From Candidatus Sulfopaludibacter sp. SbA3 (GTDB lineage: Bacteria; Acidobacteriota; Terriglobia; 20CM-2-55-15), in NCBI GenBank assembly GCA_945865815.1, contig CAMBFR010000007.1:3008-67007 (forward strand): DNA of 64,000 bases, in the 5' to 3' direction. Position 1 is the first letter of the stretch. The number at the start of each line of letters is the position of its first letter. This document shows, piece by piece, positions 15,875-64,000 of the stretch. The translations under genes and the position numbers were made by a program. Below the pieces are notes generated by a model. It worked only from the letters and a program-made list of their open reading frames with translations. It was not told where the DNA came from and searched no databases.

Positions 15875-16606
15875 ATGAGCTCGCGTCCTTTCACTTTCAT
15901 CGTTCCTGCGGTTCTCGCAATCGTCGTGGCAATCGGAATCGCGCCAAGCCGCGTTGAGGGGCAGGCCCGGCCCGCTTCGGCAGGCATCCCGGACCTGACC
16001 GGTCTTTGGGATGGCGCCGGCGGCACCTCGGACATCGTTCAAACAATGAAGGTCCGCGGCCAGGAGGTACCGTTCACTCCACATGGGGCCGAACGATACA
16101 AGAACGTGGATTATTCGAAGAACCCAAATGGTCTTTGCCTGCCGCCGGGTCCGTCAAGAGCCCTTACCGGGCCGTCGCCGTTCTTTATCGTTCAGCACGG
16201 ACAGGCGCTCGGCATTCTGTTTGAGAATCACAATATCTACAGAATCATCTACCTCGACGGCCGCCCTCATCCGGAAGATATCGCCGAGTATTCGACATTC
16301 ATGGGCCATTCGATCGGCAAATGGGAGGGAGATACGCTCGTTGTGGACACGATCGGTTTGAATGATCGAACCTGGCTCGACAGCAACGGCATGGAGCACA
16401 GCGAAAAACTGCGCCTTACCGAACGGTTCCAGAAGGTCAGCCCCGATCTCATCAAGTACACCGTTACTTACGATGATCCCGTTTTCTTCACGAAACCGTG
16501 GACACTGACCATCGATATCAAGAAGGTCACAAATACGCGCCTTATTGAATATGTCTGCCTGGATAACGAAAAGGACCGGGAGAATCTGGTGCCTACGACA
16601 AGATAG
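15875..16606 (+). CDS. Secreted protein of unknown function (paralog of 28329..29078)
   Basis: It has a signal peptide and a GGAGGAG Shine-Dalgarno sequence. The conserved core GKWEGDTLVVDTIGLNDRTWLDSNGMEHSEKLRLTERF is shared with the second copy. Confidence 0.6.
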   Translation: MSSRPFTFIVPAVLAIVVAIGIAPSRVEGQARPASAGIPDLTGLWDGAGGTSDIVQTMKVRGQEVPFTPHGAERYKNVDYSKNPNGLCLPPGPSRALTGPSPFFIVQHGQALGILFENHNIYRIIYLDGRPHPEDIAEYSTFMGHSIGKWEGDTLVVDTIGLNDRTWLDSNGMEHSEKLRLTERFQKVSPDLIKYTVTYDDPVFFTKPWTLTIDIKKVTNTRLIEYVCLDNEKDRENLVPTTR

Positions 16607-16635
16607 AGCCGGTGGTTCACAGGGGGGGAAATCTC

Positions 16636-19600: not shown

Positions 19601-20535
19601 ACGGCGGGCTGCTCCGGAACGGCGGATTGCCGGAAAATTTCGTCAAGGTCAACCCTCAGTTCAACGCCATCAACCTGACATCGAATCCCGGCAATTCCAC
19701 ATATCATTCGATGAATCTCTCGCTGAGCAAGAGGTTATCGCAGGGCTTCACGGTTCAGAGTTCCTACAGCTGGAGCCGGAGCATCGGCGAGGCCGATGGC
19801 GAGGGCACGATCATCTATCGAAATCCCAGAGACCGCTCGATGAACAAGCAGTTGCTCGGCTTCCATCGGACGCACGACTTCCGCAGCAACGGTGTGCTGG
19901 AATTGCCATTCGGACCCGGCAAGCCCATGCTTGCCAACGCTCCCGGATGGGTCTCTCGTCTGGTCGAACGCTGGCAGCTTGGCGGCATCTTCAGCCTGAC
20001 CTCCGGAACACCGATGACCATTACGGCGCCGGTCTCCACGTTCGCTCTCTCGACATCCAATACGCCGTTCAACACGCCGAATATCGTCGGAGATTTCTCG
20101 AAGAGTCTGGGGAAGGTGACGAAGGTAGCGAACGGCGTGATTTATTTCGACGGCCTCCGGCAGGTCGCAGATCCCGGAAGAGCCGGAGTGACAGCGGCAC
20201 AAGGACTTCAGGGCCAGTTCAGCAATCGCGCCATTACGGACGACCAAGGTAATTTTCTTCTCGTGAATCCTCAACCCGGACAGGTCGGCAGCCTTGGCCT
20301 GAAGTGGATCGAGGGCCCGGGAGCTATCGGCCTGGATATGAACCTCGTCAAGAGGGTGAGATTGAGTGAAACCAGGGAGTTCGAATTCCGTGTGGATGCA
20401 GTCAATCTACTGAATCACCCTAATTTCGGGAACCTTGTTGCAAATAGCCTGAACATCAACAACACCAGCTTCGGGCGCATCACATCGGCCACAGGAAGCC
20501 GCTCGTTCGTCATCAATGGCCGCGTGAACTTCTAG
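16636..20535 (+). CDS. TonB-dependent receptor with N-terminal carboxypeptidase-regulatory-like domain (1299 aa)
   Basis: A signal peptide is followed by TLGGTVSDATGALIPGV...EAGAYQF...GTYRV (CarboxypepD_reg). A plug-like region and a long beta-barrel follow, and the protein ends ...INGRVNF. ATG 16636 follows a G-rich Shine-Dalgarno sequence. Confidence 0.85.
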   Translation: MKKFFAAGLLLSVVLSAHAFGQTINATLGGTVSDATGALIPGVMITATNSGTGIATTVITNEAGAYQFASLQSGTYRVSAELPGFQTQTYNDVAMGLSQQLRLNFALQVGNVAQTVEVTVESDTLLTTTSASVGTVLPEYKIRDLPLVGRNALDLVTTQVGVFGGGMSANSIGIFAGTRPNNVNTARDGISVNDTRHSDSGAFAVTYTSPDLVEEVRVIVAAADAEMGRGGGQVQMATRAGTNQYRGSLFYTNRNSALEASNWFNNYNGVKKDYFNRNQFGGRIGGPIVRNKTFFFFLYDGQRFATRDTVVGNVLTAEARQGIFRYYPGVQSGNAASNAPTVDFQGNPVRPGGATGNLASFNVFGRDPFRPGYDPSGWVQMAISRMPLPNDFTVGDGLNTAGIRWTRRRKDIDDNQGTAPNINRDNFNLRLDHNFNANNKVFVTATREWTISDLQLSAWPTASGDPFSRGVFKRRPSIITASLVSTLSPTVVNELRFGQRRQMLLALSGFERADGNGPEAFATLPRSNGIPYIPKTINFTENFIFGGFNGTRGNDAPRWSLADSLSWTQGSHAFKAGGEVGITTARGWTNQQVYPYANLGAGGVAVTGIDATAFPGLTGADQTNARNLLTDLSGSVDNIIQAFVLSGPTNPTFLHVGQVGNSKIVPSAEQMFLRDWRQNDFAAFFKDDWKLRPNMTLNAGLRWEWYGAGYDANGLTAAPVGGKAALFGISGTSFADLWQPGRLNGSLTTLELVGPGSPNPDKQLWKDDYNNFGPAIGISWSIPYWGQDKTLLRAGYSVNYNGVYDISTLHNGQFATPGTGLIRTDTQGAYRSLATLTLPIAITARPLQAVPVTDRLQSWSGWDEDWRSPYIQNFNLSIQRELARNWGVELRYIGSKGTKLQANIPLNDTNIFENGILDAFTITRNGGNSPLFDQMLRGLNLGSGVVNGTTVTGSASLRQSTLTRAFIANGNVGALANFLSSTPTGTGVNGGLLRNGGLPENFVKVNPQFNAINLTSNPGNSTYHSMNLSLSKRLSQGFTVQSSYSWSRSIGEADGEGTIIYRNPRDRSMNKQLLGFHRTHDFRSNGVLELPFGPGKPMLANAPGWVSRLVERWQLGGIFSLTSGTPMTITAPVSTFALSTSNTPFNTPNIVGDFSKSLGKVTKVANGVIYFDGLRQVADPGRAGVTAAQGLQGQFSNRAITDDQGNFLLVNPQPGQVGSLGLKWIEGPGAIGLDMNLVKRVRLSETREFEFRVDAVNLLNHPNFGNLVANSLNINNTSFGRITSATGSRSFVINGRVNF

Positions 20536-21225: not shown

Positions 21226-24200
21226 TTAGAAATTGATCCGGGCTCCGACCGTAACCTGGCGTCCGTCCCCGGCCGTGCTGATGCGGCCGAACGAGGCGCT
21301 GTTGATATCCACGTTAGGGGGGCCGAACACCGGGTGGTTGAGCACGTTCAAGACGTCAAAGCGAACTTCAAACTCCTTGTTCTCATCCAGGGACACCCTT
21401 TTCATGAGGTTCATATCCAGTGTGAGACTGCTGGGCCCCATTAGAGTACGGATGCCGAGCGTGCCGACTTCGCCGGGTCCCGGATTGACGAGGATCGGGT
21501 TGCCGGCCTGGTCAAGGATCGCGCGGTTCGTGAAGAAGTTGGCCAGGGAGTTTGTCGTCGTTACCGAAGCTCTGGCAGGATCGGAACCCGCATTCCCGAG
21601 CCTAAGCGTTGAGAAGTAATTCGGCAGGCTGCGGTCTGTCATGCGGGTCACTTTGCCTTGCGGCAGTTCACCGAGCAGGTGCGGCGTGTTGGTAGCCTGC
21701 TGATAGATGTTGGTCAGTCCACTCGCGGAGATCGTCAGCGGCGCGCCGGAACTCCACGCCATCACGGCGCCAAGCTGCCAACGCTCGACAATTCGAGACA
21801 GCCATCCCGGCGCCGAACCCAGGAAGTTCCTGTTCGGACCAAACGGCAGTTCCCAGGTGCCACTGCCCGTCAGTACGTGCGCGCGATGGAAGCCGAGGAC
21901 GCTCTTGTCGAGGTTCCGGTTCAGCGGATCACGGGTCGCGACGTTGTTATCGTCATTCGACAGGCCGATCGTCTTACTCCACGTATATCCGGTACGGCCG
22001 GTGATGCCGTAGGACAGGCGCTTCGTCAACTGGAGCTGGAGCGAATGGTAGGTCGAGTTGCTCATGTTTCCATTGACTCCCGCCGAACCAAACTGCGGGT
22101 TGAACACCAGATAATTTTCCGGGAGTTGACCGCTGTTGCGAATGAATCCGCCGGCCTGCCCCGTGATGTTCGTGCTGGTGTTCAGGAAGTTGGCGAGCCC
22201 GCCCGCGTTCCCGTCGGCGAGGAACGTGCGCGTGTTGGAATACTGGCGCAGAGCCTGCGAACCGGTAACGGTGGTCCCGTTCACGGTTCCGGCGCCGGGG
22301 ATGTTCATTCCCCTCAGCATCTGAGTGAACAGAGGCGCGTCGCCGCCCGCCCGCGTCACGTTGAAAGCATCCATGAACGCGCCGGCGGTCTTCGTATAGT
22401 TGTAGTCGAAGCGGCCGAACAGCTTCGTTCCCTTCGTGCCGACATAAGCCACATCGAGAATCAAGTCGCGGGACAATTCGCGCTGAACGGACAGGTTGAA
22501 GTTCTGCACGTACGGCGACACGCGGTCCGGCTCATACATGTTCATGATGAGTGTCCGCGGCTCGGTCAACGGCACGGCGCGCAGCGGCGCGAAAGGAGCA
22601 GTGAAAGGGAGCGTCGTATTCGAAAGGTTCCAATACGCTGTCCGCGTAAACGTCAGCCCATTGCCGCCCGAGTGTGCGGACAGGCCCGGCAGCCTGCCGG
22701 CGCCCTGGTCCAGACCGCCGGCGCCCATGGCGCCCTTGATCATCGCGCCCGTGTAACTGACGCCGTAACCGCCGCGCAATACCGTCTGGCGGCCAAGTCC
22801 CGGAATCGAGTAGCTGAATCCGATCGCCGGGGCGAAGTTGTTCCAGTCATCGTTGAAGACCTTCTTGTCCGGGCTCGGAGAGTTCTTGCCGACAAGTTCG
22901 ACCGTGCTCAGAGCGCCGCAGCCGATGCCGCAGAGCCCCTGGAATCCGTTCACGACGCGGCCGGCAATGCCGCGCGCCTCGTACGGCACCCCGAACCATT
23001 CGTAATGAATTCCCAGGTTCAGCGTCAGATTCGATGTTACTTTCCAGTCGTCCTTGAAGAACGCGCTGAATTCGTTGGCGCGCCAGTCCCTCCTGACAAG
23101 CGTAACTCCGTCCTGATAGCCCTTGAACTGCAATGGCGGCTCGGTGCTGGTGAGATCGAACCCCTGACGAATGTTGTCGATTGAACCTGCCAGGTTGTAC
23201 AGAACGTTCCGCGCAACCGTGGCGTTGTTGTTGGTTAAGCCGGGAACATTCGTCGGCTGGATCGGCGCCGTGAAGTTGCCGGCTCCGACAGTCGCATAGG
23301 GAGTATGGTTGGTGTCGTTCCACCCCTGCGTGCGGTCCCGCCGGAACTCCAGGCCTGCCTTGAACGCGTGGCTTCCCGAGACCCAGCTGACGTTATCGCC
23401 GTAACTCCACAGCGGGCTCCACGAGCCGCGAGTCGATCCCTGGCCCGAACTCCACTGCATGTAGCCCTGATTGTAGATCTGCGGAACGACCTGAAGGGGA
23501 ATCCCGTTGACCTTGGGGAGAAGCGCCAAAGCCTCCTTCGCCGATTCATCGAGTTGGCCGCCGGTATAATCTTCACGTCCCACATACCACGGCGCCCAGC
23601 TCTGAATCTTGTGCGCGCGCACACCCATCCGGAACTCGTTCACCACGTTAGACACCGTAGATACGAGCGAGAAATTGTAAATCCGCGGATGCTTGCGGTT
23701 CGCGCCGTCATAACCGCCCGGCCAGTTCATGATTCCGGCCTGTGTCGTGTGATTCATGCCGCGCTCGTATGTGTAGACAAAACTGGCTTTGTGGGCGGAA
23801 TTGAAGTTGTGATCGATGCGAACATTAATCTGGTCGCGATTGTTTTCCTCGTACGTCTGACCGTCGCTTGCGTCACGGCCGGAGATGCGCCTGGTGAACC
23901 GGATGCCGGCGGTATTCAGGCCGTCGCCAACCGTATAGTCATTCGGCATCGGCATACGGGCGATCACCGACTGCATGTAGCCGCTCGGATCGAACCCGGA
24001 CCGATTCGCATCGTAGGAAAAGAGGTTGATCGACTGAAGCGGACCGGTTGCCGAAGCCGGACGCACGGGGTTGCCTAACCGATCCACGCTCGGCCCGTTT
24101 TGCAGCACGTTGGCGTTGTCCGCGCCCGGGAAAAACCGATAAATGCCCCGGCGCGCTTCGGGAGTCAGAACCGTTCCGACGAAGTTTTCCTTCGCAACGA

Positions 24201-25098
24201 ACCGCTGTTCGTCAACAAGGACGAAGAAAAACGTCTTGTTTTGAATGATCGGACCGCCAACACGGCCGCCGAACTGATTGCGGTTCTGCCATTCGGATTG
24301 CGTGTTGTTGAAATTGGCAAACCAGTTTTGAGCGTCCAGAGCGGAGTTCCGGTTATTCCAGAAGACAGAGCCGCGGAACTGGTTGGTTCCCGACCGCGTC
24401 ACCAACTGCACCTGCCCCGATCCGCGGCTGGCTTCGGCATCGACCGTACTGGTCGTGACCTTAACTTCTTCAACCAGGTCCGAACTCGTATACGTCGTCG
24501 TAAAGGTCCCGTGGTTATAACGGCCCGCCGATACGTTGAATCCGTCGCGGCTCACTGCCACCTGGCTGATGCGGCCGCCGGCGAAGAATCCATCGACGTC
24601 GGCTTCCGTCGGTCCGGCGCCGCCAATGCCTCTGAGCAATTCGAGGACGTTGCGGTCGCCGGTCGGCAGTTCGCGAACCTGCGTTTCGGGAAGTACCGTG
24701 CCGATCGATGACGACGTCGTAATCAAAGCGCCGGAAACTTCTGCCGTGACATCCACGGTGGTGGCGATGTTGCCCACCTGCAACGTAAAGTTCAGGCGGA
24801 CCTGATCGCCTCCGCCGAGAACCACGCTGTTATTCGTGGCCGTCTGGAAACCGGCTAACGAAGCCGTGACCTGATATGTACCCGTTTGGAGCGCGGCAAA
24901 CTGGTACGCTCCCGCTTCGTTGGTAATCGAGTTGTTGACGATTCCCGTTCCGACGTTGCGCGCGGTAACTTCGACGCCGGGAATCAAAGCCCCCGTCGAA
25001 TCCGACACGGTGCCGCCCAGAGTCGCATTGGTTGTCTGTGCGAATGCTGCCGCAGACAGGGCAAATAGCAAAAACGCCGCCGTAACTGAAGTCTTCAT
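21226..25098 (-). CDS. TonB-dependent receptor with carboxypeptidase-regulatory-like domain (paralog of 16636..20535)
   Basis: The architecture matches the first receptor and the N-terminal domain is very similar (TLGGTVSDSTGALIPGV...EAGAYQF...GTYQV). The protein ends ...VGARINF. The start is ATG 25098 (preferred, 6 nt after GGGGGG) or 25104. Confidence 0.85.
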   Translation of the reverse strand: MKTSVTAAFLLFALSAAAFAQTTNATLGGTVSDSTGALIPGVEVTARNVGTGIVNNSITNEAGAYQFAALQTGTYQVTASLAGFQTATNNSVVLGGGDQVRLNFTLQVGNIATTVDVTAEVSGALITTSSSIGTVLPETQVRELPTGDRNVLELLRGIGGAGPTEADVDGFFAGGRISQVAVSRDGFNVSAGRYNHGTFTTTYTSSDLVEEVKVTTSTVDAEASRGSGQVQLVTRSGTNQFRGSVFWNNRNSALDAQNWFANFNNTQSEWQNRNQFGGRVGGPIIQNKTFFFVLVDEQRFVAKENFVGTVLTPEARRGIYRFFPGADNANVLQNGPSVDRLGNPVRPASATGPLQSINLFSYDANRSGFDPSGYMQSVIARMPMPNDYTVGDGLNTAGIRFTRRISGRDASDGQTYEENNRDQINVRIDHNFNSAHKASFVYTYERGMNHTTQAGIMNWPGGYDGANRKHPRIYNFSLVSTVSNVVNEFRMGVRAHKIQSWAPWYVGREDYTGGQLDESAKEALALLPKVNGIPLQVVPQIYNQGYMQWSSGQGSTRGSWSPLWSYGDNVSWVSGSHAFKAGLEFRRDRTQGWNDTNHTPYATVGAGNFTAPIQPTNVPGLTNNNATVARNVLYNLAGSIDNIRQGFDLTSTEPPLQFKGYQDGVTLVRRDWRANEFSAFFKDDWKVTSNLTLNLGIHYEWFGVPYEARGIAGRVVNGFQGLCGIGCGALSTVELVGKNSPSPDKKVFNDDWNNFAPAIGFSYSIPGLGRQTVLRGGYGVSYTGAMIKGAMGAGGLDQGAGRLPGLSAHSGGNGLTFTRTAYWNLSNTTLPFTAPFAPLRAVPLTEPRTLIMNMYEPDRVSPYVQNFNLSVQRELSRDLILDVAYVGTKGTKLFGRFDYNYTKTAGAFMDAFNVTRAGGDAPLFTQMLRGMNIPGAGTVNGTTVTGSQALRQYSNTRTFLADGNAGGLANFLNTSTNITGQAGGFIRNSGQLPENYLVFNPQFGSAGVNGNMSNSTYHSLQLQLTKRLSYGITGRTGYTWSKTIGLSNDDNNVATRDPLNRNLDKSVLGFHRAHVLTGSGTWELPFGPNRNFLGSAPGWLSRIVERWQLGAVMAWSSGAPLTISASGLTNIYQQATNTPHLLGELPQGKVTRMTDRSLPNYFSTLRLGNAGSDPARASVTTTNSLANFFTNRAILDQAGNPILVNPGPGEVGTLGIRTLMGPSSLTLDMNLMKRVSLDENKEFEVRFDVLNVLNHPVFGPPNVDINSASFGRISTAGDGRQVTVGARINF

Positions 25099-25342
25099 AT
25101 TCATCCCCCCAGTCAAAAGGTTCCTGCCTCGAACGAAGGAAGTGGCACAACTGTCTAAGTTCCACGTCCGTTCGCAATATCCCGATTTGTCAGTTATTGG
25201 TGGCCGTATTCTAAACGTCTTACCGCAGGTCGAAACAAGAAATTCGATAGTGGTCTAATTCGGGGACAGACCACTACCGCGATCAATAAGGGGTGCTGAA
25301 TATCGCGAAACGCCGGATCTGCGGGCCCTTCTATCCTTTTGT

Positions 25343-42567: not shown

Positions 42568-43109
42568 TATACACAAGGCCGCAGCGCCTCTCCCCCGGGG
42601 CCGGGCACCAAAGGACATCTTGGGGACAGACTCCGAATCAAGTGGCAGTGGCAGATCGGTATCCTGAATTTGGAGTCTCCCAATATTCCCAATAGGCCGG
42701 TTTCTCGCAACTCGACCCGCGTTTTCTGCGATTCCTGAACACCTGGCGACTTTTGTGGAGGAATGTTGCCTGCACGCCGACCTAATTCAACTTCCCAGAA
42801 GGGGACTTGTGGGTCCTTAAGCCCACTTCTACGTATAGCCGACGTCCAAGTGACAATTGCTGATCATTGCTTGAGCTTGGTTTGTGGTTGTACGCGCGCC
42901 ACGAGCTCGTCCGTTGCTTTCAGGAAATGACGGTGCAACCAATCGATAACGTGCCGCCGGCGGAGTTCGAAACGGCGTATTATCGCCAACACGAAGAGTC
43001 AGCCATCGAGGCCTGACTCCACTTAAACAGTCTCCGGTAACCCCCGGGGGCTTCAAATGGAATGTGGTGCAATGTTCGATGTAGTTTACCCACGCACGTT
43101 CTGAAGTTC

Positions 43110-44828
43110 ATGGCAACACTGGAAAACCAGGTCGACGCGGTGCTGGACTACCATTCCCGCACGAAACATCATCTGCACCGTTTCGCGGCATCATTGGGAT
43201 ACCTCGACTGGGCAACACAACCGGATCCATTTCGAACCTTTGATGGCGCGCAGACTATCGCCCTGCCTCTTTCTGCCGAACGGCTTGCACAGGCGCGTTA
43301 TGACGAGCTTTACTCTTTGGGGATTGCTGCCCTGCCTGTTAATCGGGACAGTGTCGCGGCGCTGTTTGAACTGGCTCTCGGACTATCTGCTTGGAAGCAA
43401 TACGAGAAAACACGCTGGGCCCTGCGCTGCAACCCGTCGAGCGGCAACCTGCACCCCACCGAAGGCTATGCGGTTCTTCCCGATATCCAGGACCTGAATA
43501 GCGGCGTCTATCACTATCTGTCCCGCGACCATTGTCTGGAGCGGCGATGCACACCTCGGCGTGAAGGGACTGACCGTCTCGCAAGTATCTTGGGGGGCTC
43601 GATCCTGGTGGGTTTGTCCTCGATTCATTGGCGCGAAGCGTGGAAATACGGCGAACGCGCCTTCCGTTACTGCCAGCACGATATCGGACATGCCATTGCA
43701 ACTGTTCGGTATGCGGCTGCTGCGCTGGGTTGGAAAGCCGAGTTACTCGACGTATCCGACTCTATGATCGCGGGCGTTCTGGGTCTGTCTCGGAAAGAGG
43801 ACTTCGCCGGCATCGACGAAGCCGATCGAGAGCATCCCGGCGCGCTGCTTTGCGTTGGGCCTAGCGGCCCTGTTGAGCCTGGTGCACTCGGCGGTCTCTC
43901 GCCCAAACATAAGGGTGCTGCGGCCATCGACATCGCAGGTCTGCACGAGGTGATGAAGCACGAAAGGTGGGAGGGACGGCCCAACCTCTTGAGCCCGGAC
44001 CACACACGATGGCCTGTCATCGACTTTGCGGCTCAAGCGGCGTGGCGAAGCGAGGACGCTCTCGATTCCGATTCCGCCGCCGCCTCGCGAACCTATACAC
44101 CTCCCGCGCCTTCCTGGAGCGATTCAAGCGCGAGTGCGCCGCGCCGCGCCGTCGATCTCATCAAGCAACGCCGAAGTGCTGTTGCTCTCGACGACTCGAC
44201 GTCGATTGGACTTCAAACCTTTTACGGAATGCTCGACCGGTTATTACCGCGGGCCGGCGCGGCGCCCTGGGACGTCCTGCCATGGCCGCCCCATCTGCAT
44301 TGCGGAATCTTTGTGCACCGCGTTGACGGCCTGACTCCGGGGCTGTACCTGTTCTTACGAAATCCCGATTCAGAGAAGAAAGTGAAGTCAGCACTCAGCC
44401 CCAGTTTCCTTTTTGAACGTCCGAGCGGCTGCCCGGAACATTTGTTGTTGTTCAGACTCATAGACGGAAACTTCCGGCAACAGGCGCAGGTCGTCAGTTG
44501 CCAGCAGAAGATCGCCGGGGCCGGCGCGTTCAGTCTGGGCATGATCGCGGAGTTCCGAGACAGTGTTCGTTCGAAAGGAGCCTGGTGGTATCGCAGGCTT
44601 TTCTGGGAGTCAGGCGTGCTGGGACAAGTGCTGTATCTCGAGGCCGAGGCTGCCGGAATTCGGGGCACGGGAATCGGTTGTTATTTCGACGACGCCTTCC
44701 ATAGCATCCTGGGCCTGCAAGACAACCAACTGCAGAGCCTTTACCATTTCACAGTCGGCGGACCTGTTGAAGATACCCGCCTGACGACGCTGCCCGCCTA
44801 TGCACATCTCAGTCCCGACAGGCGGTAA
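43110..44828 (+). CDS. SagB/ThcOx-type nitroreductase-family protein, two-domain form
   Basis: It has YHSRTKHH, WATQPDPFR and RCNPSSGNLHPTEGY. A second nitroreductase-like half ends GIGCYFDD...YHFTVGG. Confidence 0.7.
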   Translation: MATLENQVDAVLDYHSRTKHHLHRFAASLGYLDWATQPDPFRTFDGAQTIALPLSAERLAQARYDELYSLGIAALPVNRDSVAALFELALGLSAWKQYEKTRWALRCNPSSGNLHPTEGYAVLPDIQDLNSGVYHYLSRDHCLERRCTPRREGTDRLASILGGSILVGLSSIHWREAWKYGERAFRYCQHDIGHAIATVRYAAAALGWKAELLDVSDSMIAGVLGLSRKEDFAGIDEADREHPGALLCVGPSGPVEPGALGGLSPKHKGAAAIDIAGLHEVMKHERWEGRPNLLSPDHTRWPVIDFAAQAAWRSEDALDSDSAAASRTYTPPAPSWSDSSASAPRRAVDLIKQRRSAVALDDSTSIGLQTFYGMLDRLLPRAGAAPWDVLPWPPHLHCGIFVHRVDGLTPGLYLFLRNPDSEKKVKSALSPSFLFERPSGCPEHLLLFRLIDGNFRQQAQVVSCQQKIAGAGAFSLGMIAEFRDSVRSKGAWWYRRLFWESGVLGQVLYLEAEAAGIRGTGIGCYFDDAFHSILGLQDNQLQSLYHFTVGGPVEDTRLTTLPAYAHLSPDRR

Positions 44829-45031
44829 CGCAGCACGGTTACGGACGGAAGTTGGGCTTATTGACGAACCTCGCCTTTTCTTCTCCAACCCGCCGACTCT
44901 GCCTTTGCAGCCGCCACGCGTTCCGCAATACCGCGGAAAATGCGGTCGCGCACCGCGCGCGCCCGTTGACGAGTCGAGGGTCTGTCATGGTCGTGCTCCC
45001 TCGAAAGATCAAATACACTATGATCCACATC

Positions 45032-46537
45032 ATGACGCAAGTCACTGACAACACTGGCTCCACTCGATTCGCTTTCGACAATACGTATGCGCGCGATCTC
45101 GAAGGTTTTTACTCTGCGTGGAAGGCCGCGCAGGTGGCGCAGCCTTCGCTGGTAAAGCTCAACCGTCAACTGGCTGAGGAATTGGGATTGAATGCGGATG
45201 CACTCGATTCCGTCGAAGGCGCGAAGATCTTTACGGGCAATGAAGTACCCGAGGGAGCGTCACCGCTGGCTCAGGCGTACGCCGGCCACCAGTTCGGCAA
45301 CTTTGTGCCTCAACTTGGCGATGGGCGGGCCTTGCTTCTCGGCGAAGTGATCGACCGCTACGGCAAGCGTCGCGACATTCAACTGAAGGGCTCCGGGCGC
45401 ACTCCTTTTTCACGCGGCGGCGACGGCAAGGCCGCACTCGGTCCAGTGCTGCGAGAGTATCTGATGGGTGAGGCGATGCACGCGCTCGGCATCCCGACGA
45501 CCCGCGCCCTGGCCGCAGCCAAGACAGGCGAGCCCGTTTATCGTGAGGGCACGCTGCCGGGAGCCGTCTTGACGCGCGTTGCGGCGAGCCACATCCGTGT
45601 CGGCACCTTCCAGTTTTTCGCCGCGCGCCAGGAGTTCGACAACGTGCGCCGTCTGGCCGATTACGTCATCGAGCGCCATTATGCGGAACTAAAAGGCCAT
45701 GCGACTCCTTATCTTGCCCTGCTTGCGAACGTTGCCGAGAGACAAGCGGCGCTCATCGCCAAGTGGATGCACGTGGGCTTCATCCATGGCGTGATGAATA
45801 CCGACAACATGGCGATCTCCGGTGAAACGATCGATTACGGGCCGTGCGCGTTCATGGATCACTACGACCCTGCCACGGTGTTCAGCTCCATCGACCACCA
45901 CGGCCGCTATTGCTACGCCAACCAGCCGAAGATTGCGCAATGGAACCTGGCGCGGCTGGCCGAGACGCTGCTCCCGCTGATCGATACGGATAATGACCGC
46001 GCGATCGCGAGTGCCACGGACGTCATCAATGACTTTCCCGATCAATATGAACGGTACTGGATCGCGGGCATGCGTGCGAAGCTCGGATTGACTCAGCCAG
46101 AGGAGGATGACGTCGAGATCGCTCTGGGGTTCCTCAAAGCAATGCAGGGCAACCACATCGACTGGACGCTGGCGTTTCGCTATCTTGCCGATGCCGCGGC
46201 AGGACCCTCAAGTGACGCAGGGCGGATCCGCGCGCTGTTTGCTAATGCGCCCGACTTCGATCTGTGGTTTCAACAGTGGCAAACTCGGCTTTCGCGCGAA
46301 TCGGTCTCACTGTCGGACCGTGCGCAGGCGATGCGGCGGGTTAATCCTGCGTTCATTCCGCGCAACCACCGCGTCGAGGAAGCCTTGAGCGCCGCAGTTG
46401 AGCGTACCGACTACGCTCCCTTCGAGACGCTGTTGAGACTATTGCTGCGGCCTTTCGACGATCAGCCGGAATTCGCAGCGTTTGCTGAACCGGAGCCAGG
46501 AGGGCATGCGGGCTACCGTACGTTCTGCGGCACTTGA
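45032..46537 (+). CDS. selO: Protein adenylyltransferase (AMPylase) SelO/YdiU
   Basis: It has YAGHQFG, QLGDGRA, GSGRTPFSRGGDG, GVMNTDNM, IDYGPCAF and the C-terminal ...TFCGT, where Cys takes the place of eukaryotic Sec. Confidence 0.9.
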   Translation: MTQVTDNTGSTRFAFDNTYARDLEGFYSAWKAAQVAQPSLVKLNRQLAEELGLNADALDSVEGAKIFTGNEVPEGASPLAQAYAGHQFGNFVPQLGDGRALLLGEVIDRYGKRRDIQLKGSGRTPFSRGGDGKAALGPVLREYLMGEAMHALGIPTTRALAAAKTGEPVYREGTLPGAVLTRVAASHIRVGTFQFFAARQEFDNVRRLADYVIERHYAELKGHATPYLALLANVAERQAALIAKWMHVGFIHGVMNTDNMAISGETIDYGPCAFMDHYDPATVFSSIDHHGRYCYANQPKIAQWNLARLAETLLPLIDTDNDRAIASATDVINDFPDQYERYWIAGMRAKLGLTQPEEDDVEIALGFLKAMQGNHIDWTLAFRYLADAAAGPSSDAGRIRALFANAPDFDLWFQQWQTRLSRESVSLSDRAQAMRRVNPAFIPRNHRVEEALSAAVERTDYAPFETLLRLLLRPFDDQPEFAAFAEPEPGGHAGYRTFCGT

Positions 46538-53756: not shown

Positions 53757-54413
53757 TCAGCCGATATCTTTGGTCAATTCCTGGATGACTTTTTCGAGCC
53801 GCCGCAGACGCGCCCGGGGATCCCGATAGTGAAATATTCCGAACAAATGTCTTCGCCGATGAGACGGCGTCAGCCGGTTCCAGCCTGCAGCTGCTTCAGG
53901 GTCGCGGACAAGCGCCTGCCGAAGCAAAGGCGGAAGTTCGCGCTCGGCTTCCATCGTCTCCATCAGTCGCTCGGCGATCTGTTCCGCACGGCGGACCCGC
54001 GTTGCCGGCTGTTTTGCTGCAGCGACGAATCGCGCTATATCGGTTCGCATCGAAGGACTCAGCGATTCCCAAAACCTAAGCAATCGCCTTGAGCTCCCGA
54101 GCGCCTTTTCCAGTTCAGGGGCGGCAGGCGCAGTACGCTTCTCGGTGTCGGCTTCCATCCGGAAGCGCGCTTCCATTCCAGGACGAACCTTCGCCCCTTT
54201 TTGCATCTGCCTGTTGACGATCATGAAGTGGCCGCCATTGCGAGTAGGTAACACCGAGGTGCGAAAAGGAAATCCGCTGATGTCACCTTTGATTCGAACA
54301 TGACCTCGGGATCCCCAGACCTTTTCGACATCGAACGGAATCCAAATGATCGTCCAGTTCATGCTGTGGCTCGTCCGCCGCTCCAATGTCGCCGAAAATG
54401 TCTTGACCGGCAT
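53757..54413 (-). CDS. DUF1905 + YdeI/OmpD-associated domain protein
   Basis: The N-terminus has WTIIWIPFDVEKVWGSRGHVRIKGDISGFPFRTSVLP. The C-terminus has ...ARFVAAAKQPATRVRRAEQIAERL. Confidence 0.6.
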   Translation of the reverse strand: MPVKTFSATLERRTSHSMNWTIIWIPFDVEKVWGSRGHVRIKGDISGFPFRTSVLPTRNGGHFMIVNRQMQKGAKVRPGMEARFRMEADTEKRTAPAAPELEKALGSSRRLLRFWESLSPSMRTDIARFVAAAKQPATRVRRAEQIAERLMETMEAERELPPLLRQALVRDPEAAAGWNRLTPSHRRRHLFGIFHYRDPRARLRRLEKVIQELTKDIG

Positions 54414-54568: not shown

Positions 54569-54646
54569 TCAGGGTTCCCCGAAGATTCAAACTGACCCAA
54601 CTTGGCATTCTCTGCGATGATCTGTGTACTAGAATCGTTCTACAAG

Positions 54647-55828
54647 ATGCCACGAATTGAAGACTTGACCGAGGTTCAGCGCCAGACGGTGCTGAACTTT
54701 CCCTGCTTCGAATACGATGACACGCCTTTTGTTCCTCCTGGCAAGCCAGTCCACCAGATCAGGCTGGCATTGGTGACCACAGCGGGCGTGCACCTCCGGG
54801 GAGACAAAACGTTTACTGCCGGAGATCAGACCTATCGCGTGATTCCGTCCAACATTGCCGCGAGGGACATTATTCAAAGCCACAGCAGCATTGGTTTCGA
54901 CCGGACGGCGGCATACCGGGACCTGAATGTCACTTTTCCGATTGACCGGTTAAACGAAATGGCGGAGCGGGGCATCATCGGTTCGACAACCGCCCGCTAC
55001 TATTCCTTCATGGGCGCGCAAACGAACCCCAGACGAATCCTCGAGGAAACCGGCCCGGAAGTCGCGCGGCTCCTGTTAAAGGAAGGCGCCGACGCCGCAA
55101 TCCTGACTCCCACCTGACCGAATTGCACGCACACGGTCAGTGTGCTTGCGAGGGCGCTTGAGGCTGCCGGACTGCCGACAACGAGTCTCGTTCTGCTCAA
55201 GGAACACGCCGAACGCACCAAGCCGCCGAGGGCGCTTTTCGTGCCCTTTCCTTATGGCTATGCCCTCGGCAAACCGGACGATCCGGAATTCCAGCACAAA
55301 GTGCTGAACGCTGCGTTGGAGCTGTTCAGCGCTGCGGCCGGGCCGGTGTTGGCCGAATTTCCGGAGAAAGGGAATGCGCCGCCGCGCCTCATCCAGGCCA
55401 GCGCTATTCAGGCCGTCAATAAAGAAGGTGACGCGGCCATGGAATTAACCGCGATGCGGCGTTACTACGAGCAGTGGGTTGAGCAGCACGGTGGACGAAC
55501 GGCGGTCGGAAATTCCGGCGTTCCCCAGCGGCGCTTCCGCGGTCTGGTCCGCTACCTTCAAGCGTACGTGGCCGGCGCTCCGCACGACTATGAGAGGCCC
55601 GCGGGGGTCAGCGCGGAAGTCAGCCAGGTCCAGTTCATGCGGCAGGCGGCAGATGATCTGAAGGCTTTCATGCTGGAAGCGCGAATGCAGCAGCGTCCCA
55701 ATGACCAGGATAATGCCCTGCACGAATGGTTCTGGGGAGAGACGGCCGTGGGTTCGCTGTTAGCGCGCCTGGCGCACAAACTGAAAGATGAGGGAGAAGA
55801 ACGGACGGCATTCGGCATCGCCCGCTAA
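54647..55828 (+). CDS. GrdB/PrdB-family (glycine/sarcosine/betaine reductase protein B-like) selenoprotein; TGA 55115..55117 read as selenocysteine
   Basis: Track ORFs 54602..55117 and 55142..55828 share one frame, separated only by this TGA. The junction AILTPT-U-PNC-THTVSVLARALEAAGLPT fits the family U/C-x-x-C motif. The N-terminal part (VTTAGVH, YRVIP, SHSSIGFDR, YYSFMG) also fits the GRDB family. Confidence 0.7.
55125..55149 (+). promoter_or_regulatory. Candidate SECIS hairpin
   Basis: GCACGCACAC-GGUCA-GUGUGCUUGC pairs at 9 of 10 positions. It starts 7 nt after the UGA and has a G-rich apical loop. Confidence 0.5.
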
Positions 55829-55841
55829 GGGGCCATCGAGT

Positions 55842-56204
55842 TCAGCCTTTGCCGCTGATTCGCATCCACTCGACTTCCATGCGGATCAGCTTTTCGCCGA
55901 GCATGTGAAGCGTTTCATCGCCCGGATCGACAAACTCGAAGCCCAGCAAACGCCCCGCGACCCTGCAGATTTTCGATGGAACATCAAACACCTTGTTCCG
56001 GTAGCTGAGGGTGAGTGTGCACATGCCATGTTCTTCGAAGACGACCTCGTGGTCGACGAGGAACAGGTATACCAGGGTGCCGCCTTCGCTGAGGTCCAGC
56101 ATCTTGCCCAGCGCCTGCTGCTGCCCAACCCGAATGACGACGGCTTCGTCGTCGTTCACCACGGGTATGACGCGGTCGGAGCGGCGCTTGTTTTCACCAG
56201 CCAT
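55842..56204 (-). CDS. PilZ domain protein (c-di-GMP receptor-like)
   Basis: It has RRSDR ... DLSEGG motifs. Start chosen at MAGENKRRSDR. Confidence 0.7.
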   Translation of the reverse strand: MAGENKRRSDRVIPVVNDDEAVVIRVGQQQALGKMLDLSEGGTLVYLFLVDHEVVFEEHGMCTLTLSYRNKVFDVPSKICRVAGRLLGFEFVDPGDETLHMLGEKLIRMEVEWMRISGKG

Positions 56205-56261
56205 TTGGACTCGTGCGAGCATTCAGTAGATTCATCGTCAACCTGCGCCGGAAACTATTGC

Positions 56262-61330: not shown

Positions 61331-62332
61331 TTACTGCGGTGCTCTTATCGCGTAGGTGTACACCTTTTCCGGTGGGGTAATTCGGCTGGCGGCAGCGAGG
61401 CCGGTCACAACGTTGTTTGCGATGGCGTTGTAATACCAGGCAAAAAACTCGGCGAATGCCGTATAACTCCCCGACCGCGTCTGCGTGCCCAACCGTAGAA
61501 ATTCGCTGCGGCGGGCCTTGAAGAACGGCAGGAGTTTGTCGCGGGCAAGCAGGCTCATGAAGACGCGGAACTTCCGGGCGTCGTCGTCGTCATAGACGGT
61601 CGCCCTCCCCCGGAGATCTCCCAGGTTCAACCTTTCTTCAGCCAGCGACGTCCCGACCGTTACGATTCGGTAGCCGTCCGACTCGCGAAATTCGCGCCGC
61701 ACCGGCCCCGCCGCCGCGGGATTGCTCTCCACGAGCCAGGCATAGAAACGATCGTTTCTCAATCGGGCCGGGGGGGGCGGCATCAGCGTCTTGTCTTCAT
61801 AGAGCGCATCCATCATTGCGCCAAAGAGAAGGCCGGAAACCACAGCCTCATACATGACCTGTCCCCTGGGCATGGTCTTTGACCCATTGAGAGCCATGAC
61901 GGCGTTCTCGATCTCGGTCCATTGACTTGCGATCAATCTTCCGAATTCTTCCGAATCGCGCTGCAGGCTGTCTTTAACGCGATCGAAGTCCTGCTCTCGA
62001 ATGACGACCATGAACGGACGCTGATCAAATTCGTTCCGGGATCGGGTGAGGCGCTGCTCATCGAGTTCATCGGCGACTTTGGAAAAGTCGGGAACAGAAA
62101 CCTTGAAGGTCCTCGACAACTTGTCGAGATCCCATCCTTCGTGGAAAGCAACCGCGATCCAGCGCGCCTGCTCCTTGTTCATGAGATCCGCGGCGGCACG
62201 CGACCATGGATACATGCCGAACTGGAAATCGGCGTGGACCTGGGGCTTCTCGACCCTTTTCTGCGCGTCCACGCCCGGGGTCAGGACGGCCAGAGACAGG
62301 ACAAGGGGCCCAAAGATGGTTGTCTTGTTCAC
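61331..62332 (-). CDS. Secreted hypothetical protein
   Basis: GTG 62332 overlaps the stop of the upstream receptor gene (GTGA). The signal peptide is NKTTIFGPLVLSLAVLTPGVDAQ. I recognise no family. Confidence 0.5.
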   Translation of the reverse strand: MNKTTIFGPLVLSLAVLTPGVDAQKRVEKPQVHADFQFGMYPWSRAAADLMNKEQARWIAVAFHEGWDLDKLSRTFKVSVPDFSKVADELDEQRLTRSRNEFDQRPFMVVIREQDFDRVKDSLQRDSEEFGRLIASQWTEIENAVMALNGSKTMPRGQVMYEAVVSGLLFGAMMDALYEDKTLMPPPPARLRNDRFYAWLVESNPAAAGPVRREFRESDGYRIVTVGTSLAEERLNLGDLRGRATVYDDDDARKFRVFMSLLARDKLLPFFKARRSEFLRLGTQTRSGSYTAFAEFFAWYYNAIANNVVTGLAAASRITPPEKVYTYAIRAPQ

Positions 62333-64000
62333 CACAGGAATTTTAACCCAAACTGGGCGATTCGCGGAGACCGGGCAACAAAGAGAGCGCCGAAGTCGGA
62401 GGAGTCCACGAAGTTCTGCATTGATGGCGGGGCAACAAAGTTCGGGTGGTTCAGGACATTGTAGGCATCCGCGCGAAACTGCAGGCGGGTTGCATCGGAA
62501 AGCCTGACACTTCGGGTCAAAGCGGCATCCAGGCTCCAAATGCCGGGCCCGATAATGACGTTCCGCCCGCTGGAGCCGAAGCGCGGACCATCGGGAATTC
62601 GGAAGGCCGCCGGATCGAAGAACCGGTCCGGCGTGGGTTTGGAGACATTGGGATTTCCAACAAGGTCGGGGCGGTTGACAATCGGACTTCCCGTCCCCGA
62701 AACGTCGGTGCCGGTGACAGCCGACAGCGGCGTCCCGGATTGCTTCGTTCCGATGGCCTGGATCTGCCATCCCCGCAATACGGTAATGGCCGGCAGGTTG
62801 TATGTCGCCGAAAACCCGAATCGATGTTTCGTGTGAAAATCGCTGAGACCCCGCTCGGCACGAAGATCGCGGGAGTTTTGCGGGAGCATGCTGATCAGCG
62901 TCGCGTCATCTATCGATCTCGAAAAACGGTATGACGCGGCGAAGCCCAGCCCGGCGCGAAACCGCCTCGCAATCCGCGCTTCGCCGGCGTGCGCTATCGA
63001 TGACGCGCTCGTCTCGAACTGAAAGATGTTGCGAAACTCCGGAAAGGGCCGGCGCTCGCTAAGGGCGTCGAAAGGCCCCGGCGACGGCTGGTTCAGATCC
63101 AGTTGGCGCCTCAGTCTCACGCCTTTTTGCCCCAGATATGAAACATCGGCCTGGAGACCTCCCGGCAGAGGTTGCTGTACCGACAGGCTCCACTGCTGCA
63201 CGTATGGATTCGGTAGTTGCCGCGATGAAGAAAACAGACTCGGCCGCGGAGTCGCGCCCGCCCGCTCAAATGCATCGCCAAGATAGAAACTCGGAAGAAC
63301 AGGGCCGTTGTCCTTCACATCGAAACGCACGAAAGGCGGATTCAGTCCCACCAAGAAAAGACTGTCGCCCACCGTCAACGTGTCATAGAACAGCCCGACA
63401 CCTGCACGCACGAGCATATCTCCGAAAGGCCGCCAGGACAGGCCGGCGCGAGGTCCCCAGTTGTTGCGATCGCGATTATAAAGCCTGTCCGGCGACGCCA
63501 CGAGTTGCCCGGTCGAGGAATCAAAGTTCGACACCATGCCGTCCGTCTCTGTAAAGGGAGACTGGTAGTCGTAGCGTATTCCGGCATTTATCGAAAACCT
63601 CGGCAGCAGCGCCTGGTCGTGCTGGATATAGAAGCTCCCTGTCCAGGTCCGAAAATTTCGCGCAGTATCGCCTTCAATGCGCAACGCGTTGCTTGGAACT
63701 CCCAGCAGCAGGTTTGCAAAGGGATGTCCGGAAAAAATGCCCCCGGTGAACTGGAACTGACCGCGGCTATATAAATCCAGGGATGCGTGAAACGGAAAGT
63801 AACGAACGGTGCCGCCGAATTTCGTGACCGATGCGGCGCCTTGCCGGGAAAAATCATTAAGGAGTTCGAAGCTGCGATTTCGCCGCACCTGCGGCAGATT
63901 CTGCGCGTGGCCGAGGTTCGAAAGACCGGTAACCAGAACTGCCGGAAACGCCGTGCTTCCCATGATGGTGCGTGGCTGCTCCAGAAAGTTCATCGAGAAG
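62329..64000 (-). CDS. TonB-dependent receptor, C-terminal barrel portion (5' end beyond the window)
   Basis: The frame is open to base 64000. The beta-barrel-like alternating pattern ends ...YNVLNHPNF...AQFGLKFLW. This matches the C-termini of the two complete receptors. Confidence 0.7.
   Translation of the reverse strand, partial: FSMNFLEQPRTIMGSTAFPAVLVTGLSNLGHAQNLPQVRRNRSFELLNDFSRQGAASVTKFGGTVRYFPFHASLDLYSRGQFQFTGGIFSGHPFANLLLGVPSNALRIEGDTARNFRTWTGSFYIQHDQALLPRFSINAGIRYDYQSPFTETDGMVSNFDSSTGQLVASPDRLYNRDRNNWGPRAGLSWRPFGDMLVRAGVGLFYDTLTVGDSLFLVGLNPPFVRFDVKDNGPVLPSFYLGDAFERAGATPRPSLFSSSRQLPNPYVQQWSLSVQQPLPGGLQADVSYLGQKGVRLRRQLDLNQPSPGPFDALSERRPFPEFRNIFQFETSASSIAHAGEARIARRFRAGLGFAASYRFSRSIDDATLISMLPQNSRDLRAERGLSDFHTKHRFGFSATYNLPAITVLRGWQIQAIGTKQSGTPLSAVTGTDVSGTGSPIVNRPDLVGNPNVSKPTPDRFFDPAAFRIPDGPRFGSSGRNVIIGPGIWSLDAALTRSVRLSDATRLQFRADAYNVLNHPNFVAPPSMQNFVDSSDFGALFVARSPRIAQFGLKFLW

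Follow-up and report, generated by a model that had tools for sequence, protein, structure and literature searches.

Does an in-frame UGA lying between two adjacent open reading frames end one gene ahead of the next, or is it read as selenocysteine (Sec) within a single longer gene? The question is raised by a 64,000-nt stretch of DNA (the window), in which ORFs 54602..55117 and 55142..55828 share a frame, begin 540 nt apart in the window ORF list, and are parted only by TGA 55115-55117 and eight sense codons (55118-55141), an arrangement proposed in a preliminary description of this DNA and borne out by a frame check and translation. From 54647 to 55828 on the forward strand the frame is broken solely by this TGA, which falls inside LTPT-U-PNC-THT; the read-through translation is ...GADAAILTPT*PNCTHTVSVLARALEAAGLPTTSL... 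and the Sec-spanning junction peptide would be LTPT-U-PNCTHTVSVLAR. Other in-frame TGA candidates of the window were also examined, and none was credible besides that at 55115. Taking together the evidence set out below, we consider it very probable that a single, monocistronic gene spans 54647..55828 and encodes, through a recoded UGA, a 393-residue selenoprotein belonging to the GrdB/PrdB superfamily (Pfam GRDB; Table 1).

Table 1. Features of the predicted selenoprotein gene, in window coordinates.
Feature	Position	Strand	Description and basis
PrdB-like selenoprotein CDS (predicted)	54647..55828	+	393 codons including Sec157; stop TAA 55826-55828; translation, homologue starts
PrdB/GrdB-like catalytic domain, residues ~19-227	54701..55327	+	Pfam GRDB, TIGR04483, BLASTP to the GrdB of locus L049
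In-frame TGA, predicted Sec (U157)	55115..55117	+	Opens the U-P-N-C redox motif; conservation, Cys homologues, GrdB alignment
TGC, Cys160	55124..55126	+	Presumed resolving Cys of U-x-x-C; invariant in 81/81 Sec-forms and all aligned Cys-forms
SECIS-like hairpin	55125..55149	+	Lower stem 55125-55127/55147-55149; upper stem 55129-55134/55140-55145; loop GGUCA 55135-55139
C-terminal extension, 166 residues	55328..55825	+	Mostly helical (predicted); absent from PrdB and GrdB

Existing annotation divides the gene, as had been anticipated of standard gene callers. The public call on a near-identical contig (L086) consists of two pieces of 166 and 228 aa, the first starting at the in-frame ATG 54617, 30 nt upstream of our preferred start, and ending at the TGA, and most close relatives in the protein databases are C-terminal halves of 219–231 aa. 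We judge ATG 54647 the likely start because homologues begin MPR(L/I) at the same position. A promoter and terminator scan returned no match. These annotations agree with a reading in which the locus is a split gene or two separate genes and no recoding takes place: a 156-residue GRDB-domain protein would end at 55117, and a 228-residue protein would start from GTG 55142, a codon that is invariant in all 81 sequences compared and is formally usable for initiation.

The comparison set comprised 80 fetched genome loci (Dehalococcoidia/SAR202, Chloroflexota, and Acidobacteriota) plus the window, hereafter the Sec-forms. At the Sec157 codon every one of the 81 sequences carried TGA, against a background in which the remaining ORFs of these loci, where 200 aa or longer, stop at TGA in 35% of cases, TAG in 43%, and TAA in 22%; the terminal stops of the PrdB-like genes themselves were TAG in 50, TAA in 21, and TGA in 9. 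Across the eight codons from the TGA to the GTG, which encode the best-conserved peptide of the family, amino acids were kept while third positions varied by 1.2–1.4 bits, a pattern of synonymous variation from which we conclude that these codons are translated. The alignment of homologues also showed many invariant columns among the 236 codons downstream of the TGA.

The same column holds cysteine in all 13 aligned full-length homologues (~395 aa, 45–49% identical), which read ITPT-C-PxC-THT and run as single polypeptides through the junction (the Cys-forms); these homologues neither end at this position nor occur as two genes. In a BLASTP alignment with a genuine GrdB from locus L049 (E = 3e-13, spanning residues 83–225), the TGA also lies opposite the Sec-TGA. 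The expectation that this column would prove to be Sec or Cys in homologues was therefore confirmed, as was the U-x-x-C motif, present here as U-P-N-C. A split at 55117 would cut that motif in two and, judging from a structural model, would separate a helix from the beta-strand preceding it. The invariance of GTG 55142 is accounted for by its position within a hairpin stem, and we regard the two-gene reading as extremely improbable.

The preferred reading of a single recoded gene calls attention to the RNA immediately past the UGA. A SECIS-like hairpin 7 nt downstream had been proposed, and the sequence GCACGCACAC-GGUCA-GUGUGCUUGC is indeed the minimum free energy structure there, with 9 bp and one C/U mismatch. 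Conservation, covariation, and the GGUC loop upheld the proposal, with one small correction: what the family keeps is an upper stem of 5–6 bp with its 5-nt loop, and not the full 10-nt arms. Pairing of the 5-bp core is possible in 81/81 Sec-forms and 0/5 Cys-forms; in all five of the latter, V-S-V is replaced by A-S-A. Among 67 distinct sequences, pair 19:27 is AU in 39, GC in 27, GU in one, and broken in none, and its A-U/G-C state switches at least six times on a neighbor-joining tree. Each switch couples position 1 of a Thr/Ala codon to the synonymous third position of a Ser/Cys codon (AGU/UGU vs. AGC/UGC). The covariation score of 0.148 (0.082 in shuffles) was reached by 0 of 500 shuffles, and 86% of cells in the stem were paired as opposed to at most 51% when partners were slid. 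Clean covariation is limited to this one stem pair, since the other core pairs, which the conserved C-T-H-x-V-S-V peptide also constrains, are invariant and hence uninformative; in the Sec-form alignment the His (CAC) and Val (GUG) codons of the stem do not vary.

Folding energies of the single sequence were no lower than expected by chance to a significant degree (z = +0.09 for 71 nt and −1.69 for 46 nt, with 13/200 shuffles as stable), and for that reason we did not use them as evidence. Rfam gave zero matches at the gathering threshold across the whole window and none of relevance in a permissive scan of 55000-55300. To our knowledge Rfam holds no general bacterial SECIS model, which makes this null result uninformative. 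A more direct comparison is offered by the SECIS of Escherichia coli fdhF, whose reference sequence we verified in 5,419 genomes. Both elements are stem-loops in the coding sequence just past the UGA, with GGUC in the apical loop and an upper stem starting ~11–12 nt past the UGA; the window loop GGUCA occupies nt 21–25 from the UGA and the fdhF GGUC loop nt 22–25. The window stem differs in sequence and is shorter (5–6 conserved bp), and its binding by SelB is predicted. Being conserved, covarying, absent from Cys-forms, and fdhF-like in spacing and loop, the hairpin behaves as a SECIS by these comparative measures. By analogy with fdhF, UGA 55115-55117 would be decoded as Sec when the stem-loop that begins 11 nt downstream presents its GGUCA loop to SelB-GTP-Sec-tRNA(Sec), which would deliver Sec to the ribosome.

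The UGA might instead be read through without Sec (a suppressor, or a near-cognate tRNA for Trp or Cys, could do this), with the hairpin merely stimulatory and the organism lacking Sec machinery. Consistent with this, the ~71 kb of this genome that could be searched, comprising the window and ~7 kb past it, yielded no Sec machinery: SelA, SelB, and SelD were absent from a Pfam scan of 48 window ORFs and from L086, and ARAGORN detected no tRNA in the window. An ARAGORN search of ~1.1 Mb of loci likewise revealed no tRNA-Sec. Sec decoding by the source genome is accordingly a candidate capacity; Sec-decoding organisms do occur in both Acidobacteria and Chloroflexi (PMC1794560). Against non-Sec read-through stands the presence of Cys in the homologues without TGA, the classical Sec/Cys signature, together with the homology of position 157 to the Sec of GrdB and the match of hairpin geometry and GGUC loop to the SelB-binding fdhF element. 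TGA also serves as an ordinary stop for 35% of the other ORFs in these loci. Moreover, in loci L049 and L054 a GrdA gene (CFV-TGA) and a GrdB gene (TGA) lie beside the PrdB-like gene, and those Dehalococcoidia genomes therefore carry several TGA-interrupted selenoprotein genes. We consider read-through by anything other than Sec very unlikely.

The proposed membership of one undivided gene in the GRDB superfamily was supported by Pfam GRDB (PF07355), which scored 44.6 bits (cut-off 22) over residues 19–156 (model positions 207–347), the match stopping exactly at the Sec codon. This assignment needs one qualification, in that HMM scores place the protein nearer PrdB than GrdB and the equivalog cut-offs of both were failed. 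The best NCBIfam match was TIGR04483 PrdB (E = 2.3e-43, residues 28–227 against 20–218 of 238 model positions), with 148.4 bits against a cut-off of 300, and GrdB, GrdF, and GrdH models gave 41–55 bits against cut-offs of 602–800. The C-terminal extension had no Pfam or NCBIfam match. It nevertheless contains invariant columns and motifs kept across the family (RYYEQW, RFRG, DDLKA, WFWGETA, and GIAR), and in an AlphaFold2 model of the Cys homologue P0017 (48–49% identical) helices occupy residues 266–394 at a pLDDT of 91.7.

The same model places a strand at 150–154, the Cys pair at 157/160, and a helix at 158–173. Sec157 and Cys160 would accordingly sit at an N-terminal helix cap right after a buried beta-strand, a predicted placement that fits a redox-active selenol/thiol pair. 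A thioredoxin-fold CxxC oxidoreductase of the thioredoxin or glutaredoxin type was considered and rejected: Thioredoxin_3 scored 14.5 bits against a cut-off of 24.8, there was no significant fold match, and the likeness is restricted to the local strand-CPxC-helix motif. Sequence and profile searches of the PDB yielded nothing beyond a weak match to a glutaredoxin active site (E = 0.35), and Foldseek found no significant PDB match for the P0017 model; this fold, that of PrdB/GrdB included, has no solved representative in the library searched. In a plausible catalytic cycle, Sec157 would attack the substrate or an oxidized partner, Cys160 would resolve the adduct to a selenenyl-sulfide, and thioredoxin or a lipoyl protein, acting as dithiol donor, would then re-reduce it.

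Given that TIGR04483 is the top NCBIfam match, that JGI names the Cys-forms “D-proline reductase (dithiol) PrdB,” and that the gene adjoins a grd cluster in L049 and L054, it could be asked whether this is a genuine PrdB, or the B subunit of glycine or betaine reductase, with the genes for its pyruvoyl (PrdA/GrdE) and electron-transfer partners located at other sites in the genome. The subthreshold scores above speak against this, as does comparison with the known enzymes. The catalytic domain is homologous to that of PrdB from Clostridioides difficile and Clostridium sticklandii, with U151 there corresponding to U157 here. PrdB of C. difficile is a 25.7-kDa protein (PMC11229817), whereas the window protein has 393 residues, 166 of them in the helical extension. 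Cys-forms are natural and common in the window family, yet the U151C variant of PrdB is inactive (PMC11229817), and the hosts, Acidobacteriota and SAR202, are not Stickland fermenters. In GrdB, GrdF, and GrdH the region around the Sec is homologous, U opposite U, and the L049 GrdB gene has a hairpin at the same distance after its UGA. The window protein, however, has no counterpart to the first ~200 residues of GrdB, and its motif is U-P-x-C-T-H where L049 GrdB has U-G-T-S.

Partner genes point the same way. The preliminary description had reported no grdA, grdC, grdD, grdE, or thioredoxin partner, and our scan of the window ORFs agreed, finding no thioredoxin gene and none for PrdA, PrdH, PrdC, GrdA, GrdE, GrdC, or GrdD; no Gly_reductase (PF09338) gene was present in the window either. 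Only two of 86 loci (L001-L086) contained grd-type genes, namely L049 and L054, each with a complete grd cluster that has its own GrdB and whose PF09338 gene is its GrdE. In a sample of 150 ORFs flanking the gene at 38 loci, PF09338 occurred once. We therefore see very little chance that the window gene encodes a true PrdB or GrdB, and conclude that its product is a subunit of neither D-proline reductase nor glycine reductase. Proline reductase activity in particular finds no support, because there is no PrdA, an extra domain is present, and Cys-forms occur naturally.

The family itself is not new, having been catalogued in metagenome surveys. Those of the Sargasso Sea in 2005 (PMC1088965) and of the Global Ocean Sampling (GOS) data in 2008 (PMC2398784) list “proline reductase PrdB, UxxC, pfam07355,” giving no domain architecture, partners, or function for it. 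Like the window protein, the survey “PrdB” belongs to pfam07355, carries U-x-x-C, and has both Sec-forms and Cys-forms, and it was identified by the same logic as used here, a TGA/Cys pair with a downstream hairpin bearing G in its loop. The two sets also share an abundance in marine, non-clostridial bacteria; the genome that supplied the window copy is Acidobacteriota-like and of soil or sediment origin. We infer that the survey set and the window protein are the same family.

Most of the loci we found belong to SAR202/Dehalococcoidia. Neighbor clustering and Pfam assignment of the 150 ORFs flanking Sec-forms recovered clade-specific synteny only (MFS, Zn-ADH, luciferase-like, MscS, and ArfB genes), and no conserved partner gene was found among them. 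One clade of Dehalococcoidia has a gene for ArfB-type ribosome rescue 4–7 nt upstream of the selenoprotein gene. The Cys-forms are located in aromatic ring-cleavage clusters, frequently adjoining a GcvH-like gene. A literature search returned no paper connecting PrdB-like proteins to maleylacetate/hydroxyquinol clusters or to SAR202.

A speculative reading, to which we give a low but appreciable probability, joins these contexts: the ~395-residue PrdB-like proteins would be no proline reductase subunits but a distinct family of self-contained selenol/thiol reductases, equipped with a C-terminal helical domain of their own. As parts of this tentative picture, the Cys-forms may act with a lipoylated GcvH-like carrier in clusters for the catabolism of aromatics (catechol/hydroxyquinol and perhaps methoxy-aromatics); the Sec-forms, common among the SAR202/Dehalococcoidia and Acidobacteriota genomes that were sampled, may carry out the same reductive step on recalcitrant organic matter; and the upstream ArfB-type gene could be tied functionally to inefficient UGA recoding.

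For a selenoprotein specialist the gene finding is correct yet unsurprising. Under the name “PrdB,” this family has ranked with the most abundant selenoproteins of the sea since 2005. Once joined, what public annotation shows as two hypothetical proteins becomes a complete selenoenzyme of Acidobacteriota and SAR202, both of which are important for carbon turnover, in soil and ocean. The context of the Cys-forms, in which aromatic ring-cleavage genes are accompanied by a GcvH-like gene, provides a concrete, testable route to the function of this family.

Two adjacent ORFs, 54602..55117 and 55142..55828, share a common frame and are separated only by TGA 55115-55117 and eight sense codons, as the preliminary description had read them. 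Translation of 54647..55828 gives 393 codons with a single internal stop, preceded by ...GADAAILTPT and followed by PNCTHTVSVLARALEAAGLPTTSL... We consider it highly probable that this interval is a single Sec-containing gene, and its proposed identity as one GRDB-family selenoprotein gene is supported by three lines of comparative evidence: the TGA in related loci, Cys at the same column in full-length homologues, and covariation in the hairpin. A protein database search recovered 1,370 relatives. The closest (58–84% identity) are all C-terminal halves of ~219–231 residues whose first residue is the Val codon past the hairpin loop, and they were therefore split in the same way as the window gene, in line with the expectation that gene callers would divide it. 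The suggested inspection of the UGA column was made against full-length homologues of ~395 residues (45–49% identity to the window protein), and all 13 of those aligned read ITPT-C-PxC-THT there.

Scanning one genome per GTDB species yielded 193 related loci, the best 80 of which were kept; two derive from a single Acidobacteriota MAG and the others from Dehalococcoidia/SAR202/Chloroflexota. Every one of these best 80 has TGA at the equivalent codon, while the stop codons of other ORFs of ≥200 aa at these loci are TGA (35%), TAG (43%) or TAA (22%); even assuming only 10 independent lineages, the chance of an all-TGA column is ~3e-5. Across the eight codons from TGA to GTG the amino acids are kept (P, x, C, T/S, H, T/A, V, S/C) and third positions vary by 1.2–1.4 bits, the signature of translated sequence. 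The two loci from the Acidobacteriota MAG (MFD04967.bin.2.116) are TGA-containing paralogues on different contigs, with 80 and 69% identity to the window protein. The terminal stops of the PrdB-like genes themselves, readable in 80 of 81 (the window gene plus the 80 loci), are TAG in 50, TAA in 21 and TGA in only 9, vs. the 35% TGA of other ORFs. Possibly a second UGA is avoided close to a message that carries a SECIS; chance or phylogenetic inertia would be alternative explanations of this scarcity.

The candidate SECIS at 55125-55149 folds as GCACGCACAC/GGUCA/GUGUGCUUGC, with 9 bp, one C/U mismatch and the G-rich apical loop that had been described. Single-sequence folding is not statistically remarkable (z of +0.09 for 71 nt and −1.69 for 46 nt, with 13 of 200 shuffles equally stable); the support for the element is comparative. 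When 81 sequences were aligned in register, every one of them could form the upper stem (columns 16–20 with 26–30), and 86% of cells are paired vs. at most 51% with the partners slid. The covariation score of 0.148 was reached by none of 500 shuffles (0.082 in shuffles). Among 67 distinct sequences, pair 19:27 is A-U in 39, G-C in 27, G-U in one and never broken, with at least six state changes on a neighbor-joining tree. The switch couples base 1 of a Thr/Ala codon to the synonymous base 3 of a Ser/Cys codon (Thr with AGU/UGU, Ala with AGC/UGC), for which there is no protein-level reason. The stem codons for His (CAC) and Val (GUG) never vary, so that their third-position variation is zero. 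Family loops are GGUCA (38) or CGUGA (33), with G-U invariant at loop positions 2–3. The hairpin does not form in any of five loci tested that carry Cys instead of TGA, where A-S-A or G-G-A in place of V-S-V removes the 3′ arm.

The window hairpin has the same geometry as the Escherichia coli fdhF element as generally described, the sequence of which we checked against 5,419 E. coli genomes. Counted from the U of the UGA, the fdhF loop GGUC occupies nt 22–25 and the window loop GGUCA nt 21–25. The minimal fdhF SECIS comprises 17 nt placed 11 nt past the UGA, and its loop bases G23 and U24 contact SelB.

With Cys substituted at the TGA, the window protein passed Pfam GRDB (PF07355) at 44.6 bits vs. 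a cut-off of 22, confirming the family assignment; the match covers residues 19–156 and ends exactly at the TGA. The top NCBIfam model was PrdB (TIGR04483; 148 bits, residues 28–227), under its equivalog cut-off of 300, and the GrdB, GrdF and GrdH models gave 41–55 bits vs. cut-offs of 602–800. Genuine PrdB is a 25.7-kDa protein with Sec151 that acts only with pyruvoyl-PrdA, for whose maturation PrdH is responsible, and its U151C variant lacks activity (PMC11229817). The window protein has the catalytic domain and Sec position in common with it but fails the equivalog score, partner and size tests, and we rejected it as PrdB and, from the model scores, as GrdB. "Proline reductase PrdB" (UxxC, pfam07355) is among the most abundant selenoprotein families in the Sargasso Sea (42 Sec, 1 Cys; PMC1088965) and GOS (235 Sec, 110 Cys; PMC2398784) data, and "proline reductase" selenoproteins are also recorded in non-Stickland bacteria, e.g., Anaeromyxobacter and Geobacter (PMC1794560). 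The window protein is best described as a GRDB superfamily member within this catalogued PrdB-like group.

Two sister Dehalococcoidia MAGs (L049 and L054) provide a positive control within the data: after the PrdB-like gene comes a complete, genuine glycine-reductase-type cluster (L049:7243-12205). Its GrdB continues in frame for ~75 codons past the TGA, and reads U-G-T-S from Sec, without Cys at +3. BLASTP of the window protein against this GrdB (E=3e-13) aligned one TGA codon with the other, showing the Sec position to be homologous; the 166-residue tail of the window protein overshoots the GrdB end. Given the TGA-bearing GrdA and GrdB, relatives of these genomes evidently have several selenoprotein genes interrupted by TGA.

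An AF2 model of a Cys homologue (P0017) was confident (pLDDT 91.7, pTM 0.91), with an alpha/beta domain, in which strand 150–154 leads to Cys157/Cys160 at the start of helix 158–173, followed by a mostly helical region (266–394). Such a strand-CPxC-helix is the arrangement used by redox-active dithiol proteins. No solved structure resembled it by sequence or by fold (best Foldseek E=8.7e-3, TM ≤0.3), and the sole PDB profile match, a glutaredoxin active site, was non-significant (E=0.35).

Other window features are listed in the table. The TGA ending the SelO homologue is probably no more than a normal stop codon, the genome being GC-rich, and the same-frame ORF pair, with no Cys/redox motif at its junction, probably represents two genes. 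The three outer-membrane proteins, taken with the fact that the nearest homologues of the window protein come from an Acidobacteriota MAG, point to Acidobacteriota as the source of the window. A contig near-identical to the window is ENA ERZ27280224 k141_1315899.

Features of the window and of the glycine-reductase-type cluster
Feature	Location	Strand	Remarks
SbcC/JetC-like ORF	104-2608	+	Wadjet-type defence; probably cut by window edge
JetD	2615-4003	+	Wadjet-type defence; JetD_C + DUF3322
ORF pair	14828-15829; 15875-16606	+	same frame; TGA (15827) + 15 codons between; no Pfam match
Three very large outer-membrane proteins (TonB-dependent-receptor-like)	16612-20535 (+); 21226-25116 (-); 62329-63993 (-)		CarboxypepD_reg + OMP_b-brl_4
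ORF upstream of SelO homologue	43062-44828		weak nitroreductase match
SelO (protein adenylyltransferase) homologue	44852-46537	+	E=2e-122; ends ...TFCGT-TGA; frame open 62 codons further
DUF1905/OmdA gene	53757-54413	-	upstream, divergent
PilZ gene	55842-56222	-	downstream, convergent
GrdC/D-like ORF	L049/L054 cluster		DUF5940 + ACP_syn_III
GrdA	L049/L054 cluster		C-F-V-TGA
GrdE	L049/L054 cluster		PF09338, E=2.7e-77
GrdB	L049/L054 cluster		PF07355, E=5e-127; ORF stops at TGA, LTSA-U-GTSTRSG

The window gene stands alone between its divergent and convergent neighbors, and, as initially reported for grd and thioredoxin partners, a scan of 48 window ORFs turned up no Grd/Prd partner, thioredoxin or Sec-machinery gene. 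Comparison of the Sec-form loci revealed no neighbor common to all. An ArfB-type ribosome-rescue/peptidyl-tRNA hydrolase gene (RF-1 domain, GGQ motif, ~140 aa; e.g., L015:5566-5994), absent in the window, lies upstream of the selenoprotein gene on the same strand in 25 of the 80 loci (L005-L031), at 4–7 nt in 15, ~50–330 nt in eight and 530–920 nt in L007 and L031. This linkage, which persists among ArfB proteins as little as 49% identical, may have to do with UGA recoding or be no more than synteny.

All eight Cys-form loci (L081-L085 and L088-L090) lie amid aromatic ring-cleavage genes, including intradiol dioxygenase (PF00775), muconate cycloisomerase (MR_MLE), muconolactone isomerase (MIase) and dienelactone hydrolase (DLH), along with maleylacetate-reductase-type Fe-ADH, CoA-transferase (CoA_trans) and LysR or MarR regulators. 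In four loci the gene that comes next, on the downstream side, is GcvH-like; such a gene lies one gene off in L085 and ~3.6 kb off in L084; DUF1330, GcvT, MTHFR or YCII genes are often close. One database member (P0050) carries a fused muconolactone-isomerase domain, and our literature search found no paper on an association of PrdB-like proteins with aromatic ring cleavage. That the protein is a self-contained reductase tied to aromatic catabolism and lipoyl carriers is a speculative and rather improbable reading. The window gene itself is a mis-annotated, correctly recognised selenoprotein gene of an already known kind.
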